DNA of 64,000 nucleotides from Alphaproteobacteria bacterium (GCA_963665325.3 CAXXWS020000003.1:640001-704000), one strand, 5' to 3'; positions 9,995 through 64,000 are shown, counted from the first letter of the stretch. The notes: generated by a model from the sequence alone, not told the origin. Numbers and translations: made by a program.

Positions 9995-10897
9995 ATGACA
10001 CCCCTCCGGTTGATCCCCAAGCGCCTGCTGCCGCGCAATGCGTGGGGAGACAAGGAGTTCTGCCGGCGCCGGTTCGTCCGGAGGCAGGGGCGGCGGCCGG
10101 AACTGCGCGATCCGAGGCGACTGACCGACCAGCTTTACCGGATCAAGACGGACGGCTCGTTGCTGGACCCGCTATGCCAGTTCGTGACCGACAAGGAGCA
10201 TGCGAAGCAGTATATCGAGGGCGTGATCGGCCCCGGCTGTCTGCCGGAGACCTACCGGGTGCTCAAGAATGCCGAAGACATAAGCGGCTTCGTCCCCGAC
10301 CGCGTTCCCTGTGTGCTGAAGCCCACGCATCTGAGCGGTCCGGTTCTCTTCCATACCGACCCGGACGAAGACATTGACCGCGGTCTGCTTTGCGAATGGC
10401 TGAAGAAGGAGCGGTACAGCAACACAAGGGAGGCCAACTACCGCCATCTCCAGCCGAAGATCATCATCGAGGAGTTCTTTTCCCAGGACGGACTGCCCGT
10501 GCCCAAGGACTACAAGCTGTTCTGCTTTCATGGCGCGCCGAAGCTGATCCAGGTGGATGACGGACGTTTCGGGCACCACACGCGGAACTTCTACGATATG
10601 AGCTGGAACCGGTTGCCCGTGACCTTTCGTTATCCGGCCGGTCCCGAGGACGAGAAGCCGCCTCTTCTGAAGGAAATGTGGGAGATTGCGTCCCTGCTCG
10701 CCTCGGCGTTTTCATTCGTTCGTGTGGACCTGTTTGCAAGCCGGACGGGGATTTGCGTCGGAGAACTGACATTCTGTCCCGAAGGCGCGAACGCCCCGCT
10801 TCTTCCCGACGCCGCCGACATCGAGCTCGCAAGGCTCTTCGACCCCGACTACCGACTGGACGCGTGGGCCTGCGCCGAGGCCTGGGCGAAGGGATGA
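9995..10897 (+). CDS. TupA-like ATP-grasp amidoligase
   Basis: DKEHAKQY, VLKPTHLSG, IIIEEF, DYKLFCFHG, FVRVDL and GELTFCP match the TupA ATP-grasp pattern. Confidence 0.87.
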   Translation: MTPLRLIPKRLLPRNAWGDKEFCRRRFVRRQGRRPELRDPRRLTDQLYRIKTDGSLLDPLCQFVTDKEHAKQYIEGVIGPGCLPETYRVLKNAEDISGFVPDRVPCVLKPTHLSGPVLFHTDPDEDIDRGLLCEWLKKERYSNTREANYRHLQPKIIIEEFFSQDGLPVPKDYKLFCFHGAPKLIQVDDGRFGHHTRNFYDMSWNRLPVTFRYPAGPEDEKPPLLKEMWEIASLLASAFSFVRVDLFASRTGICVGELTFCPEGANAPLLPDAADIELARLFDPDYRLDAWACAEAWAKG

Positions 10898-11386: not shown

Positions 11387-11472
11387 CTATGCGAAAAACT
11401 TATGTCACCAAGAAGAAAACGGTATTGGTCCTTATCGAGTGCGGGTGCCAGATTGCGTTTGTCCGGTTCGGA
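11387..11472 (+). promoter_or_regulatory. Conserved promoter-like block, copy A (homologous to 61463-61548)
   Basis: Ungapped 86-nt alignment with 61463-61548, 58 identities by manual count. Contains TTGGTC-N18-CAGATT, then GTCCGGTTCGGA. Confidence 0.6.
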
Positions 11473-11572
11473 TCGGACCGCCGTCCCCGGCGCTTCGGTC
11501 CAGTAGCGGTTTCCTCCCCCGCGACCGGCAGCGCAGCCGGCGGGCCCCCCCACCCGCCGGCTGCCTTTCCTT
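11461..11572 (+). ncRNA. Putative cuckoo-like sRNA (copy A, no ORF)
   Basis: 5' hairpin GTCCGGT-TCGG-ATCGGAC, hairpin with TTTCCTCCC loop, then 12-bp stem GCAGCCGGCGGG/CCCGCCGGCTGC (11533-11564) and a pyrimidine tail. Homologous to the module at 61779-61852. Confidence 0.55.
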
Positions 11573-11693
11573 GCGGCCGGTGCGGACCCCGCCGCGGAAA
11601 AACCCGTGGTAAAATGCGCGCGGGATGGAACCTCTAAAGCCTTCCCCGCCCGCGGGCCGGGAAAGGGAGAAGCGGCAGCCGCTCGTGGCGGCG

Positions 11694-11821: not shown

Positions 11822-13522
11822 ATGGCAGGCGACCGGCATCCTTGGCTCGCGAGCTACCCCGACCATGTGAACTGGGACGCGGAGATTCCCGAAGGCCCGC
11901 TCTTCGCGATCCTCGACGACTCCGTCCGCCGCTTCCCGGACAATGAGGCGATGGATTTCCTCGGCAAGACATACAGCTATGCCGAGCTCGGGCGGATGGT
12001 GGACCGCGCCGCCGCCGGCTTCCGCTCGCTCGGCGTGGAGAAGGGCGTCAAGGTCGGGCTCTTCCTGCCGAACTGCCCGCAATTCGTCGTCTCCTTCTTC
12101 GGCATCCTAAAGGCGGGCGGCACGGTGGTGAACTACAGCCCGCTCTACTCGGAGGAGGAGCTCGCCCAGCAGATCGAGGATTCCGAAACCGACATCATGG
12201 TGACGCTCGGCCTCACGGCGCTCTATCCCAAGATGGCGGCGCTGCTCCGGAAAACGCGCATCCGCACGCTCGTGGTCGGCCAGCTGCAGGACGTGCTGTC
12301 CTTCCCGAAGAACCTGCTCTTCCCGCTGTTGAAGCGCAGCGAGCTCGCGAAGGTGCCGGACGACGAAGAGCATGTGGCCTTCCGCCGCCTGCTCGACAAT
12401 GACGGCAGCGGCGAGCCGCCGGAGATCGACCCGCGCGAGGACGTCGCCGTCTTCCAGTACACCGGCGGCACGACCGGCGTGCCGAAGGGCGCGATGCTCA
12501 CCCACGCGAACCTGCACGCCAATATCCACCAGGCGCTGCTCTGGAATCCGTCGCTGGAGCCGGGCCGGGAACGGATGATGGGCGTGCTGCCCTTCTTCCA
12601 CGTGTTCGCAATGTCGGTGGTGATGAACTTCACCATCGCCATCGGGGGCTCGATCGTCATGCGCCCGCGGTTCGAGCTCGATCCCGTGTTGCAGGACATA
12701 ACCAAGAAGAAGCCGACGCTGTTTCCCGGCGTGCCGACCATGTACACCGCTATCGTCAACCACCCGAAGCTGTCGAGCTTCGACCTCACCTCGATCAAGA
12801 CCTGCATGTCGGGCGGCGCGCCGCTGCCGCTGGAGATCAAGCGGCGCTTCGAGGAGCTTTCGGGCTGCAAGCTGGTCGAGGGCTACGGGCTGACGGAATC
12901 CGCGCCGATCGCCGCCTCCAACCCGTTCGAGGGCGTCAACAAGGAAAGCTCGGTCGGCCTGCCCGTCCCCGGCACCACGATCACCATCGTGGACAAGGAG
13001 GACCCGCTGAAGATCCTGGCCCAGGGCGAGGACGGGGAGATCTGCATCTCCGGCCCGCAGATCATGAAGGGCTACTGGCGCCGCGACGACGCGACGGCCG
13101 AGACCATCGTCGAGGGCCGGCTGCGCACGGGCGATGTCGGGCACCTGGACGAGGACGGCTACCTGTTCATCATCGACCGCAAGAAGGACCTCGTGCTGGT
13201 CAGCGGCTACAATGTCTTCCCGCGCAATGTCGAGGAGGCGATCTACCGCCATCCCGCCGTCGAGGAAGTCACCGTCATCGGCATTCCGGACGACTACACC
13301 GGCGAGGCGGTCAAGGCGTTCGTCAAGCTCGGCGAGGGCCAGGCGCTGGATGCGGACGGGCTGCTGGAGTTCCTCCGCGACAAGCTCGGCCGCCACGAGG
13401 CGCCGAAGCATATCGAGTTCCGCGACGAGCTGCCCAAGACCATGATCGGCAAGCTCTCCAAGAAGGAGCTGGTCGCGGAAGAGGCAGCAAAGCGGGAAGC
13501 GGCGGAAGCTTCGTCGGGGTAA
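11822..13522 (+). CDS. fadD: Long-chain fatty acid--CoA ligase (FadD/PimA-like)
   Basis: QYTGGTTGVPKG, EGYGLTE, RTGD and PKTMIGK adenylation motifs; GGAGAG SD. Confidence 0.88.
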   Translation: MAGDRHPWLASYPDHVNWDAEIPEGPLFAILDDSVRRFPDNEAMDFLGKTYSYAELGRMVDRAAAGFRSLGVEKGVKVGLFLPNCPQFVVSFFGILKAGGTVVNYSPLYSEEELAQQIEDSETDIMVTLGLTALYPKMAALLRKTRIRTLVVGQLQDVLSFPKNLLFPLLKRSELAKVPDDEEHVAFRRLLDNDGSGEPPEIDPREDVAVFQYTGGTTGVPKGAMLTHANLHANIHQALLWNPSLEPGRERMMGVLPFFHVFAMSVVMNFTIAIGGSIVMRPRFELDPVLQDITKKKPTLFPGVPTMYTAIVNHPKLSSFDLTSIKTCMSGGAPLPLEIKRRFEELSGCKLVEGYGLTESAPIAASNPFEGVNKESSVGLPVPGTTITIVDKEDPLKILAQGEDGEICISGPQIMKGYWRRDDATAETIVEGRLRTGDVGHLDEDGYLFIIDRKKDLVLVSGYNVFPRNVEEAIYRHPAVEEVTVIGIPDDYTGEAVKAFVKLGEGQALDADGLLEFLRDKLGRHEAPKHIEFRDELPKTMIGKLSKKELVAEEAAKREAAEASSG

Positions 13523-60555: not shown

Positions 60556-60719
60556 TCTCCCGTCTCGAAATCGTCGCGGCACTGTATTCCCCATCGTCCC
60601 GGAGTGCAGCCGGGAAAGCGCTCCGGACCCGATACCTTCGCCGATCATTGTCTGGGTTTCCGGCAGCGTCCACACTCGCCGCAGAGCGAGGACGGCCGGG
60701 CAGTATCGGGAAGAGTCGA

Positions 60720-61373
60720 ATGACGGAAGAAAGCAGTCCTGCGCCCCCGTCCCGGGCCGGCGCGGTTCAGCGGTGGCGGGAAGGGCTGGCCGCGCTTGCG
60801 GAGCGGGACGGGCGCATCCGGGCGGCGCTGGCCGAGGTCGGGACGCCGCCGATGGCGCTCCGGGGTGCCGGCTTTGCGGCGCTGCTCAGGGCGATTGCGG
60901 CGCAGCAGGTCTCGGCCGCCTCGGCGCGGGCGATCTGGGGGCGGCTGGAGGCAGCGGCCGGCGGCAGGGTTACGCCCGGGACGGTGCTGGCGCTCGGGCC
61001 GGAGGGGCTTCGCGCCGCCGGGCTCTCGTGGCCCAAGGCGGGTTATGCGCTCGCCATCGCCGGTGAGCTTGCGTCCCGGCGCGTCTCGCTCCGGCGCATC
61101 GCGCGGATGCCGGACGAAGAGGCCATCGCCGCACTTTCGGCGCTCAAGGGCATCGGGCGCTGGACGGCGGAAGTCTGGCTGCTGTTCGCGGCAGGCCGCC
61201 CCGACATCTGGCCGGCTGGCGACCTCGCGCTATGCGCCGCCCTGCAAAGGACTCTCGGCCTCGATGCCCGCCCCACGCCGCAGCAGGCCGCGCGGCTCAC
61301 GGAAATCTGGTCGCCCCACCGCAGCGCCGCCGCCATCCTGCACTGGCACATCTACCGCACCTCACCCTCCTGA
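60720..61373 (+). CDS. alkA: DNA-3-methyladenine glycosylase II (AlkA family)
   Basis: QQVS, HhH motif LKGIGRWTA, PAGDL and WSPHRS. Confidence 0.88.
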   Translation: MTEESSPAPPSRAGAVQRWREGLAALAERDGRIRAALAEVGTPPMALRGAGFAALLRAIAAQQVSAASARAIWGRLEAAAGGRVTPGTVLALGPEGLRAAGLSWPKAGYALAIAGELASRRVSLRRIARMPDEEAIAALSALKGIGRWTAEVWLLFAAGRPDIWPAGDLALCAALQRTLGLDARPTPQQAARLTEIWSPHRSAAAILHWHIYRTSPS

Positions 61374-61462
61374 GCGCGCTTGCGGGACGCCCGGATCGTC
61401 ATTCCGATACCGCGCCATCCAGGGCTGCAAGGCCTGGCGGCGCTGTCCCGGAACGGTCATTG

Positions 61463-61548
61463 CTATGTGAAATAGTTATGGTTGATAGAGGTAATCGGTA
61501 TTGGTTCTTATAGGAAGCCTTCGCCAATCTGTAGATGTCCGGTTCGGA
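61463..61548 (+). promoter_or_regulatory. Conserved promoter-like block, copy B (homologous to 11387-11472)
   Basis: AT-rich; TTGGTT-N18-CAATCT, then GTCCGGTTCGGA; 58/86 identical to copy A. Confidence 0.6.
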
Positions 61549-61608
61549 GTTCACCGGTGCCGGGCAAACGGTTCGAAGGTGACGGCGGAACGCCGCAGAG
61601 AGGCAAAA

Positions 61609-61785
61609 ATGGAAGTTCGACAAGAAGCAGCGAGCCTCGACAGGAATGCCGAAGAGCGCAAGCGGCGGCGCCGGGCCCTGGCGGTCTTGGGGATGGCGCT
61701 GGCCGTGCTGGTCGTGGCGGTCTTCGCGACCTCGGTCGACCCGGCCCCGGCCCAGGCCTGCTTCCTTGGCATCCCCTGCTGGTAA
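61609..61785 (+). CDS. 58-aa putative secreted peptide precursor (signal peptide plus CFLGIPCW)
   Basis: AGAGG SD 5 nt before ATG; basic RKRRRR, hydrophobic ALAVLGMALAVLVVAVFA, PAPAQA cleavage site, then 8-aa two-Cys tail. Flanked by its own promoter-like block and terminator. Confidence 0.65.
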   Translation: MEVRQEAASLDRNAEERKRRRRALAVLGMALAVLVVAVFATSVDPAPAQACFLGIPCW

Positions 61786-61849
61786 CAGTTTCCTCCCCTG
61801 CTACCGGCAACGCAGCCGGCGGGCCCCCACCCGCCGGCTGCTCTCTTTT
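61779..61849 (+). ncRNA. Cuckoo-like two-hairpin 3' module/terminator (copy B)
   Basis: CTGGTAACAG-TTTCCTCCC-CTGCTACCGG hairpin, then 12-bp stem GCAGCCGGCGGG/CCCGCCGGCTGC (61812-61841) and TCTCTTTT. Confidence 0.55.
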
Positions 61850-61993
61850 GCGCAGGGACCTCCCGCAGACGGGAAGCGAGACAGAACGACGGAACATGAC
61901 ATCCGGAGGACAAGACACGACACATCCAAGGCGGTTCCGCGCCCCGTTTCGCCAGTGTGACGCGAAGGTGGGAGGCGGCGGTGGGCGTGCGTC

Positions 61994-62590
61994 TTACGCG
62001 CGCGTGACCACCAGCCACTCCTTCACCCGCGCTTCCGGGTCCGGGTTCAGCGTGATGTCGGTGACGGCGGAGAGAATGTCGGCGCCGGCCTCCAGCACGC
62101 CGGGCGCGCGCTCGACGGTCAGGCCGCCGATGGCGACCAGCGGCATCGCGCCGACGCGCCGCTTCCACTCGCCGACCCGCTCCAGCCCCTGCGGGCCGAA
62201 GCGCATCTGCTTCAGGATCGTCGGATAGACCGGCCCGAGCGCCACATAGTCGGGCTCCATCGCCAGCGCCCGCTCGAGTTCCGCATCGTCATGCGTGCTG
62301 ACGCCAAGTTGCAACCCCGCCGTGCGGACCGCATCCAGGTCGGCCCCGTCCAGATCCTCCTGGCCGAGATGGACGAAATCGCAGCCTTCCTCGATGGCGA
62401 GCCGCCAGTAGTCGTTCACGATCAGCTGGCAGCCATGCGCCTCGCAAACCGCCTTCGCGGCGCGGACCTCGGCGCGCACTTCGGCCTCGGGACGGTCCTT
62501 GACGCGCAATTGCACCAGCCGGATGCCGTGCGGCACCAGCCGTTCGCACCATTCCGCGCTGTCGAAGATCGGGTAGAACGGGTCAAGCAT
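61994..62590 (-). CDS. thiE: Thiamine phosphate synthase
   Basis: VQLRVK, IVND, VHLGQED, GVSTH, LGPVYPT..K and AIGG. Confidence 0.96.
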
Positions 62591-63359
62591 CGCCGAGCAC
62601 GGCGCGGCCGATGACGGGCGTGGAAGGCCGGGCCATGTCGCGCGGCTCCATCGGGTCCGCCTCCCAGGCCGTGCGGCCGGCGGCCACCGCCTGCGCGAAG
62701 GCGCCCGCCATCATGGCCGGGTCGCCCGCCTTCGCGACGGCCGTGTTCAGCAGCACGGCATCGTAGCCGAGCTCCATCGCGGCGGCCGCATGGCTCGGCA
62801 GGCCGATGCCGGCATCCACCACCAGCGGCACATCGGGGAAATGCGCCCGCATGGCGCGGAGCGCGAAGACATTGTTGAGTCCGCGCCCGCTGCCGATGGG
62901 CGCGCCCCAGGGCATCAGCACCTCGCAACCGGCCTGGAGCAGCCGCTCCGCCACCACCAGGTCCTCCGTGGTGTAGGGGAAGACCTTGAAGCCGGAATCG
63001 GTGAGGATGCGCGCCGCTTCCACCAGGCCGAAGACATCCGGCTGGAGTGTGTCGTCCTCGCCGATCACCTCCAGCTTGATCCAGTCGGTCTCGAACACCT
63101 CGCGGGCCATCTCCGCCGTCGTCACCGCCTCGCGGACGCTGTGGCAGCCGGCGGTATTAGGCAGCACGCGCACGCCGAGCGAGCGGATCAGCTCCCAGAA
63201 ACCCTGGCCCGCCCGCGCCGCGCCCGACTCGCGCCGGAGCGACACGGTGACGACCTCGACGCCGGACGCGCGGATCGCCTCGCCCAGGACCGCCGGAGAG
63301 GGATATTGCGCCGTGCCGAGGAACAGGCGCGACGAGGGCTCGAAGCCGTAAAAGTCCAA
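62583..63359 (-). CDS. thiG: Thiazole synthase
   Basis: [23 protein letters not shown] and VDAGIG.PSHA. Confidence 0.97.
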
Positions 63360-63365
63360 AGCCGT

Positions 63366-63569
63366 TCAGCCTCCCTGCATTGGCGCCACGATTTCGACCG
63401 CGTCGCCGTCGGAAAGCGGCGCGGACGCCCTCAGCCCCTTCGGCAGGAAGGTGCCGTTGAGCGCCGTCGCCACCACGGCCCCGTTATAGCCCTTTTCATC
63501 CAGAAGGTCGGCAAGCGTCGCGGCCTCCGTGCGGAGCGTCTCGCCATTCAGTTCGATGCTGACCGTCAT
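63366..63569 (-). CDS. thiS: Sulfur carrier protein ThiS
   Basis: 67 aa with ATALNG and C-terminal MQGG. Confidence 0.96.
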   Translation of the reverse strand: MTVSIELNGETLRTEAATLADLLDEKGYNGAVVATALNGTFLPKGLRASAPLSDGDAVEIVAPMQGG

Positions 63570-64000
63570 GTCCGCACCCCTTCGCCGAGCACCATGTCCG
63601 CGGCCCTGGCCGCCATCGCCGGGGCGAGCAGGAAACCGTGGCGGTAGAGGCCGTTTACATGGAGCCGCCTGCCGTCGCGGACAACCCGGGGTAGGTTGTC
63701 GGGGAAGGCAGGGCGCGCATCGGTGCCGATCTCGACGACTTCCGCCTCGCCGAAGGCCGGATGGAGGGCATAGACGGCGCTCAACAGCTCGACCATGGAC
63801 CGCGCCGTGATGCGCTTGCGTTCGTCGTTCTCGATGGTGGTCGCGCCCAGCATGTAAACGCCGTCGCCGCGCGGCACGAGATAGATCGGAATACGCGGAT
63901 GGATGAGGCGCACCGTGCGGGTCAGCGCCACCTCGGGGCTGCGGATATAAAGCATCTCGCCCTTCACGCCGCGCAATTCCGGCAGGCGGTCCGCCGCCGC
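63566..64000 (-). CDS. thiO: Glycine oxidase ThiO, 5' part outside window
   Basis: RGVKGE, IYLVPR, RPAFPDNLP and NGLYRHGFLLAP; directly upstream of thiS. Confidence 0.9.
   Translation of the reverse strand, partial: AAADRLPELRGVKGEMLYIRSPEVALTRTVRLIHPRIPIYLVPRGDGVYMLGATTIENDERKRITARSMVELLSAVYALHPAFGEAEVVEIGTDARPAFPDNLPRVVRDGRRLHVNGLYRHGFLLAPAMAARAADMVLGEGVRT

Follow-up and report, generated by a model that had tools for sequence, protein, structure and literature searches.

Does the short unit that lies between an HhH-GPD glycosylase ORF and thiE encode a small exported peptide, a regulatory RNA, or both? The unit belongs to the window, the whole stretch of 64,000 nucleotides of alphaproteobacterial DNA that was analysed. 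It is flanked upstream by the glycosylase ORF (60648-61373, +) and downstream by thiE (61994-62590, -; Pfam TMP-TENI), which is convergent with the micro-gene. The thiE gene is part of a compact minus-strand operon of ordinary appearance (61994-64000), the other ORFs of which (62583-63359, 63366-63569 and 63566-64000) we take from their translations to be thiG, thiS and thiO. The original prediction described a stand-alone small gene with a promoter-like block, a Shine-Dalgarno sequence (SD), a 58-codon ORF and a terminator, and all of these are present in the sequence, arranged as follows.

61463-61514 (+): AT-rich promoter/operator block, with CTATGTGAAATAGTTATGG, AATCGGTATTGG at 61493-61504 and TTCTTATAGG, in surrounding DNA of about 70% G+C
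61536-61565 (+): putatively functional stem-loop of the 5' UTR, TGTCCGGTTCGG ... GCCGGGC, paired in the minimum-free-energy fold
61597-61603 (+): SD AGAGAGG, as read from the sequence, 5 nt before the ATG at 61609
61609-61785 (+): ORF of 58 codons, with ATG at 61609 and the C-terminal end ...DPAPAQA-CFLGIPCW-TAA
61609-61758 (+): leader of 50 codons, with basic N-region RKRRRR, uncharged segment ALAVLGMALAVLVVAVFATSV and DPAPAQA
61759-61785 (+): tail CFLGIPCW and stop codon, conserved across the family
61777-61809 (+): hairpin HP2, with its 5' arm at 61777-61788 and an anti-SD-like loop, UUUCCUCCC, at 61789-61797
61812-61850 (+): intrinsic terminator, with a 12-bp stem (61812-61841; 11 pairs are G-C), the C-rich loop CCCCCA and a U-rich tail, TCTCTTTTG standing directly 3' of the stem

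Judged singly, none of these features goes beyond chance. Open frames of 58 codons are common in G+C-rich DNA; a terminator scan of the unit gave one site against 0.6 expected in shuffled sequences; a sigma-70 consensus scan of the unit gave no site; and the fold of the entire transcript is not unusual (z = -1.66, with 5 of 100 shuffles folding equally well). As the single features were not significant, relatives had to supply the test, and it is conservation that raises the unit above chance, in that the entire unit recurs in relatives with the frame kept, with synonymous variation in the tail and with a codon-position period of three.

The relatives define a family of very small proteins. 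A word-indexed protein search at near lengths gave no match for the ORF product, and a six-frame search of 41 related genomes gave clear matches confined to the genus of the window, together with a second copy in its own genome; the translations from the genus terminate in CFLGIPCW, CFLGIPCR or CLLPGIPC. A profile built from seven genus proteins and searched against 1.84 billion representatives (E <= 0.001) matched 16 proteins, 15 of them 48-71 residues long and the sixteenth, P0002, a frameshifted long gene call. The 15 matches and the window protein form an alignment of 16 rows (A5), in which all 16 clusters share a basic N-end, a hydrophobic segment, A-x-A and the end [C/S/G][F/L]x(P)GIPC[W/R]. 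M1, A(-3), A(-1), G, I, P and C do not vary in any row; the N-end is basic but variable, the hydrophobic segments are unrelated in sequence, and conservation extends upstream of the putative mature peptide as P-E-P-A-x-A. Intact homologues end at the same residue as the window protein or at most one residue off. Among proteins of 110-2000 residues, the word-indexed search matched only P0001 and P0002 (125 and 192 residues), both of them frameshifted family copies that carry the ORF partly in frame and the remainder in another frame. No homologue thus continues into a larger domain, an outcome that had been raised against the existence of a complete small gene, and the only longer calls are these frameshifted copies. 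None of the refuting outcomes named in the original prediction came about outright.

A scan of metagenomes returned eight loci, three of them nearly the same as the window unit, four distant (L106-L109) and one a non-member (L110). The distant loci have an identical CFLGIPCW end and retain the promoter core AAGAAAAC.GTATT, and HP2 and the terminator module are absent from them. The organisms that bear the family are known only as metagenome-assembled genomes. A sample of 400 other genomes across the class gave one marginal match (E 9.9e-4) with a stop codon inside, and we treat the family as not found in this sample. A Pfam scan of the window protein found no family over threshold, and an NCBIfam scan covered all 16 members of A5; both gave only sub-threshold matches to membrane segments, and neither scan placed the proteins in a curated family of small proteins or RiPP precursors. 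The best score in the ESM Atlas (0.78) was to unnamed clusters and is uninformative, and the peptide strings of the family were not found in the literature searched. This is an undescribed family of small proteins, which no curated Pfam or NCBIfam model covers.

To judge from the sequences compared, the evidence on translation is mixed within the genus and decisive outside it. In all eight genus ORFs GC3 (0.76-0.93) exceeds GC1 (0.68-0.79), which in turn exceeds GC2 (0.47-0.63), and the eight ORFs, aligned as protein, remain in frame all the way from start codon to tail although their lengths differ. At the second position of the 176 codons of the hydrophobic segments there are 83 T, 73 C, 20 G and no A, so that the segment stays uncharged despite a divergence of about 30%. 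Differences between the genus ORFs are spread evenly over the three codon positions (0.37, 0.33 and 0.35), and dN/dS of the leader is 0.62-1.48 in nine genus pairs, which indicates that ordinary purifying selection is lacking beyond the tail and the hydrophobic character. The tail codons of 14 loci differ almost only synonymously, by Ala GCC/GCG, Leu CTT/CTC/CTG, Pro CCG/CCC, Gly GGC/GGG/GGA/GGT, Ile ATC/ATT/ATA and Cys TGC/TGT. Position -2 is unconstrained (Q, H, N or Y), and F/L and one C>S make up all the non-synonymous changes of the tail. That variation across 14 loci is almost confined to synonymous change implies that the ORF is translated. Selection acts on the peptide tail even where the RNA module is absent, the tail being, on this reading of the alignments, the part that is under protein-level selection and the ORF a real gene. 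We regard ORF 61609-61785 as very probably a translated gene.

The protein has the sequence pattern of a substrate of Sec and signal peptidase I, namely a basic n-region, 19-21 uncharged residues, Ala at -3 and -1 (in 16 of 16 clusters and also at 14 of 14 loci) and Pro at -4 or -6 in most family members; signal peptidase I prefers small residues at -3 and -1, leaves -2 free and commonly has a Pro nearby. A Tat signal was rejected, as adjacent RR occurs in only 10 of the 16 clusters in our own reading of A5, the others having RH, QR, GR or no pair. A lipoprotein signal for signal peptidase II was also rejected. The lipobox consensus is L-[AS]-[GA]-C with an invariant Cys at +1; P-A-[QHNY]-A-C misfits it, and 3 of the 16 clusters have S or G in place of the Cys at +1. 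At about 19-21 residues, the hydrophobic segment is on the long side for a Sec signal that is cleaved and could equally serve as an uncleaved membrane anchor.

The original prediction read the protein as a pre-peptide that would release an octapeptide closed by a Cys1-Cys7 ring. A leader that is variable yet hydrophobic, an invariant A-x-A and a nearly invariant tail agree with the pre-peptide part of this proposal; the ring is not universal. The last Cys is present in all 16 rows of A5 and the first in 13, with S or G in the other three clusters, and one genus copy has Ser in place of the last Cys. Most members could form a disulfide between their two Cys, but it cannot be essential to every one of them. 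The most economical reading of the protein is a leader with a short Cys peptide. Release of the tail as a free peptide seems to us a serious possibility that falls somewhat short of an even chance, and its release together with closure of a disulfide ring would be rather unlikely.

The RNA that carries this ORF appears to have a role of its own. In a nucleotide alignment of the copies, the best-conserved stretch consists of the last codons and about 65 nt past the stop codon; the promoter-proximal block is well conserved too, and the coding body less so. The 5' arm of HP2 (61777-61788) is made up of the final two sense codons (Cys and Trp), the stop codon and the next three bases. A DNA search found the 3' stretch to be far more widespread than the ORF, with one further copy within the window itself. 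A covariance model of HP2 and the terminator (R1), run on the genus of the window and on two sister genera, found 28 copies in 13 of 16 genus species, 1-3 per genome, and no copy in the 20 genomes that represent the sister genera.

Model-guided alignment of 26 distinct rows replaced a MAFFT/RNAalifold consensus that had recovered HP2 in part only, because its 3' arm was misaligned. In these 26 rows, 7 of the 12 pairs of HP2 have compensatory changes on both sides, 91.5% of the cells are paired against 19-54% when the partners are slid, and none of 500 shuffles reaches the observed covariation values, counts that lean towards structure because the structure was used to fit the alignment and its rows are related. 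Eleven of the 12 pairs of the terminator stem never vary in the 26 rows, which is uninformative on structure either way; the terminator loop is C-rich, with CCUCCCCU in four copies. The hairpin upstream of HP2 differs between copies. CCUCC stands in the HP2 loop of all 28 copies and the full nonamer CCUCCUCCC in two; as every SD complements CCUCC, the loop motif alone is no proof of regulation in trans. Weak matches to Rfam Acido-1, ctRNA_pGA1, F6 and BjrC80 cover the terminator hairpin only and were rejected as G+C-rich hairpin look-alikes. Taken as a whole, the 3' module probably has an RNA-level function beyond termination.

The fate of the ORF among the copies is consistent with such a function. 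The 28 copies comprise 9 with a leader-type ORF that includes the hydrophobic segment (8 intact and one with a TAG), 2 from which the segment has been deleted and 17 without such an ORF, 4 of which are as short as 157-160 nt, measured from promoter motif to terminator. The TAG, in copy G013a, is in frame just upstream of the tail; copy G011b has Ser for the last Cys; and copies G010a and G004a have an in-frame deletion of 45 nt that removes the hydrophobic segment. In each of these, and in the frameshifted gene calls P0001 and P0002, the RNA module is intact. Where the hydrophobic segment is missing, the open frames run through a homologous upstream stretch in a frame that differs between copies, according to our own three-frame reading, and we treat these frames as not conserved. 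As an account of the unit, the original prediction is supported in part, and it overlooked the RNA-level module, the 17 paralogues without the hydrophobic-segment ORF and the copies in which the ORF is decaying.

One of the copies without an ORF lies in the window.

11387-11573 (+): second, short family member without an ORF, with promoter motif (11413-11428), 5' stem-loop, CCUCC hairpin HP2 and terminator

It is located between a gene for a TupA-like ATP-grasp protein (9995-10897) and a gene for an AMP-binding enzyme (11822-13522), a site that is occupied by ORF-bearing copies in other species. The short form is orthologous in four species, among which it is 78-88% identical, while the adjoining coding genes are 80-91% identical and the intergenic DNA on either side of it does not align. 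That the short form is about as conserved as coding genes, between flanks that cannot be aligned, implies selection on its RNA or control region, and these comparisons argue for such selection as being independent of any peptide. In a separate arrangement upstream of the AMP-binding gene, a tandem of two copies spaced by about 700 nt occurs in L019 (G010:C159, 2200-3224) and in L020 (G004:C279), with one copy of the pair deleted for the hydrophobic segment and the other intact.

The known systems that come closest are the cuckoo RNAs of the ar14 family. According to the available text of a 2015 survey, cuckoo RNAs occur in Rhodobacteraceae, in four families of Rhizobiales and in the unclassified Polymorphum gilvum (PMC4615179), and the available text on NfeR1 of Sinorhizobium meliloti describes anti-SD loops that block ribosome binding sites (PMC10746234). 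As far as these texts describe them, cuckoo/ar14 RNAs, including NfeR1, resemble the present module in having adjacent hairpins with C/U-rich anti-SD loops, covarying stems and a terminator as last hairpin, and several copies per genome at unrelated intergenic sites, and ar14 aligns to paralogues here; they differ in that here there is one constant loop motif only, a peptide ORF forms the first part of the RNA, and the uncultured lineage stands outside the taxa reported by the survey (PMC4615179). The scores remained below the Rfam gathering score of ar14 (RF02344; 58.8 bits), at 25.6 bits for the window copy, which was unreported in a second scan, and 30.3 and 40.7 bits for paralogues, and nothing in the whole genome exceeded the cut-off. 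In the best of these alignments (40.7 bits, E 4e-4) CCUCCU within the C-L-L-P codons is placed in the first ar14 hairpin loop. Nor does the unit fall within the cuckoo definition as it is given in the available text of Reinkensmeier and Giegerich (2015), which calls for two to four adjacent hairpins, each loop with CCUCCUCCC. As formal membership failed, we file the unit as one that would work like a cuckoo RNA rather than as a member.

[quoted passage not shown] The likeness, as far as that text extends, lies in a small ORF that is accompanied by 3'-UTR anti-SD sRNAs, in that case CcsR1-4 (PMC8034643); the difference is that the present ORF overlaps the hairpin and codes for a pre-peptide of export type, and that processing of its transcript is putative. 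DUF1127 (PF06568) had no match in the window ORF in the Pfam scan, nor anywhere in the genome.

More distant analogies exist for each of the two proposed roles. In SgrS/SgrT and RNAIII/delta-haemolysin a single transcript serves both as the mRNA of a small peptide and as a base-pairing partner of other mRNAs; these have no sequence relationship to the present family, in which base-pairing is a proposal. The precursors of heat-stable enterotoxin and of Gram-positive pheromones consist mostly of leader and release a short mature peptide with Cys; there is no homology to them, the mature part here would have 7-9 residues and at most one disulfide, and dedicated processing or export genes are absent nearby. 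To our knowledge, hardly any pre-peptide of export type whose mature part is so short has been described in Gram-negative bacteria.

The unit is also independent in its surroundings and control. The neighbourhoods are alkA/thiE, TupA-like ATP-grasp/AMP-binding enzyme, PhoX/gcvT and DUF427/diacylglycerol kinase; conserved neighbours, a modifying enzyme and a dedicated exporter were sought in the gene neighbourhoods of the compared loci and none was found, which agrees with the original prediction of a stand-alone small gene without adjacent modifying enzymes, its neighbours differing between loci. All 25 copies examined have the promoter motif, with the consensus yATGyGAAAAAnTTATG-N11-AAGAAAACGGTATTGG-yTCTTATC; 21 of the 25 have the 5' stem-loop motif TGTCCGGTTCGG with at most two changes, and the other ORF-bearing copies have a purine-rich GGAG-type SD at the homologous place. 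That the promoter/operator is conserved and private to the unit points to regulated production of the peptide. The promoter block further contains a consensus inverted repeat, AAGAA-N11-TTCTT (61493-61509), the left half of which is degenerate in the window copy, and this repeat hints at an operator site for a regulator that acts as a dimer. A genome-wide scan for the promoter motif (at most three changes) gave 29 sites, of which 3 are family copies and a few others precede unrelated genes, and no regulon could be named from it.

A weak hint of an abundant small transcript comes from four RNA-library contigs of 159-281 nt, one from each of four libraries in four studies, which lie wholly within the unit and may stem from DNA in the libraries. 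The contigs 61541-61821, 61574-61818 and 61612-61828 are 95-99% identical to the window and terminate at 61818-61828, within the terminator stem; contig 61432-61590 is 90-95% identical.

The reading that we prefer, and to which we give about an even chance, is that of a dual-function RNA, that is, a pre-peptide mRNA that doubles as riboregulator, with a translated ORF and an RNA function. An independently transcribed micro-gene would yield pre-peptides that end, across the family, in a tail of 7-9 residues, C[F/L]L(P)GIPC[W/R]. The leader would insert N-in via Sec/YidC so that the tail reaches the periplasm; signal peptidase I would most likely cut after A-x-A and free a short peptide, here CFLGIPCW, the two Cys of which may then oxidise. 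In the genus the transcript would have a second role, in which a hairpin made of the last codons and the 3' UTR exposes CCUCC ahead of the invariant terminator, and the full transcript, or a processed 3' fragment, would pair with the SD regions of target mRNAs in the manner of cuckoo RNAs, CcsR and NfeR1. The module is shared with 27 paralogous or orthologous loci, the majority of which have lost the peptide ORF.

At the protein level, this reading has to be weighed against one in which the product is an uncleaved, N-in, single-pass micro-membrane protein, whose periplasmic tail of about 15 residues (..PAPAQACFLGIPCW) acts while tethered and might bind or modulate a membrane sensor, a transporter or a redox enzyme. 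All 16 clusters have some 19-21 uncharged residues, which is transmembrane length, the basic N-end agrees with the positive-inside rule, and conservation of P-E-P-A-x-A reaches beyond the putative mature peptide. The same region, however, has an invariant Ala at -3 and -1, a free -2 and Pro at -4/-6, the classic pattern of signal peptidase I as commonly stated, and the sequence of the membrane segment itself is not conserved. We consider a tethered product possible, if doubtful.

At the RNA level, it could be argued that the family consists only of non-coding sRNAs and that the ORF, never translated, merely follows from G+C-rich sequence and from constraints on the RNA. Absence of the ORF from 17 of 28 copies and a dN/dS of about 1 in the leader would fit, as would the overlap of the tail codons with the HP2 stem, the alignment of the type-2 CCUCCU stretch to the first ar14 hairpin loop and, in our own reading, the differing frames in which copies without the hydrophobic segment read their homologous upstream stretch. 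Against this, tail variation is synonymous also in lineages without the HP2/terminator module, codon-position periodicity is strong, with A at position 2 in 0 of 176 hydrophobic codons, and the same protein layout recurs in sixteen divergent clusters, so we hold a purely non-coding unit to be very improbable. Scarcely any probability goes to a system like type I toxin-antitoxin, in which the mRNA of a hydrophobic toxin would be silenced either by the anti-SD hairpin within it or by an antisense RNA, and the decayed copies would be toxins that have been inactivated. Such a system would account for a small, hydrophobic product, a long and structured 5' UTR, several paralogues per genome with frequent decay of the ORF, and an anti-SD element within the same mRNA, but conservation falls on the extracytoplasmic tail and A-x-A rather than on the membrane segment, and the ORF-less copies are conserved rather than decaying.

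Within the genus the copies form a series, from ORF-bearing copies through segment-deleted or frameshifted copies to ORF-less copies of 160 nt, all with the same promoter and anti-SD hairpin. It is a rare natural series in which to study the origin of dual-function RNAs and of sRNAs derived from 3' ends, and cuckoo-like regulators would extend beyond the taxa of the 2015 survey. The family also defines a peptide that can be searched for, CFLGIPCW and its variants, with a conserved cleavage-type site. More speculatively, and with distinctly less confidence than in the dual-function reading itself, it may be proposed that the lineage exports peptides of 7-9 residues, freed by signal peptidase I from the products of stand-alone micro-genes, as a diffusible signal or as a thiol or metal ligand, that in the genus the 3' end became a cuckoo-like anti-SD riboregulator, and that the ORF-less copies persist as sRNAs, which would make the series a visible record of sRNA genes born from a protein-coding gene; we consider this combination unlikely as a whole.

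Some further observations concern the genome of the window. Promoter/operator-like sites with two changes from AAGAAAACGGTATTGG and with AT-rich DNA upstream stand before unrelated ORFs at G000:C3:362781 (+) and G000:C1:1951003 (+), and these sites may reflect a shared regulon, or chance. The three family copies of the genome share one contig of 1.1 Mb, and the third of them (G000:C4:243754-244130, -) has an intact ORF of 60 codons with the end CLLPGIPC. An ORF for an SbmA/BacA-like transporter (L016:3360-4655) is located about 3 kb from this third copy.
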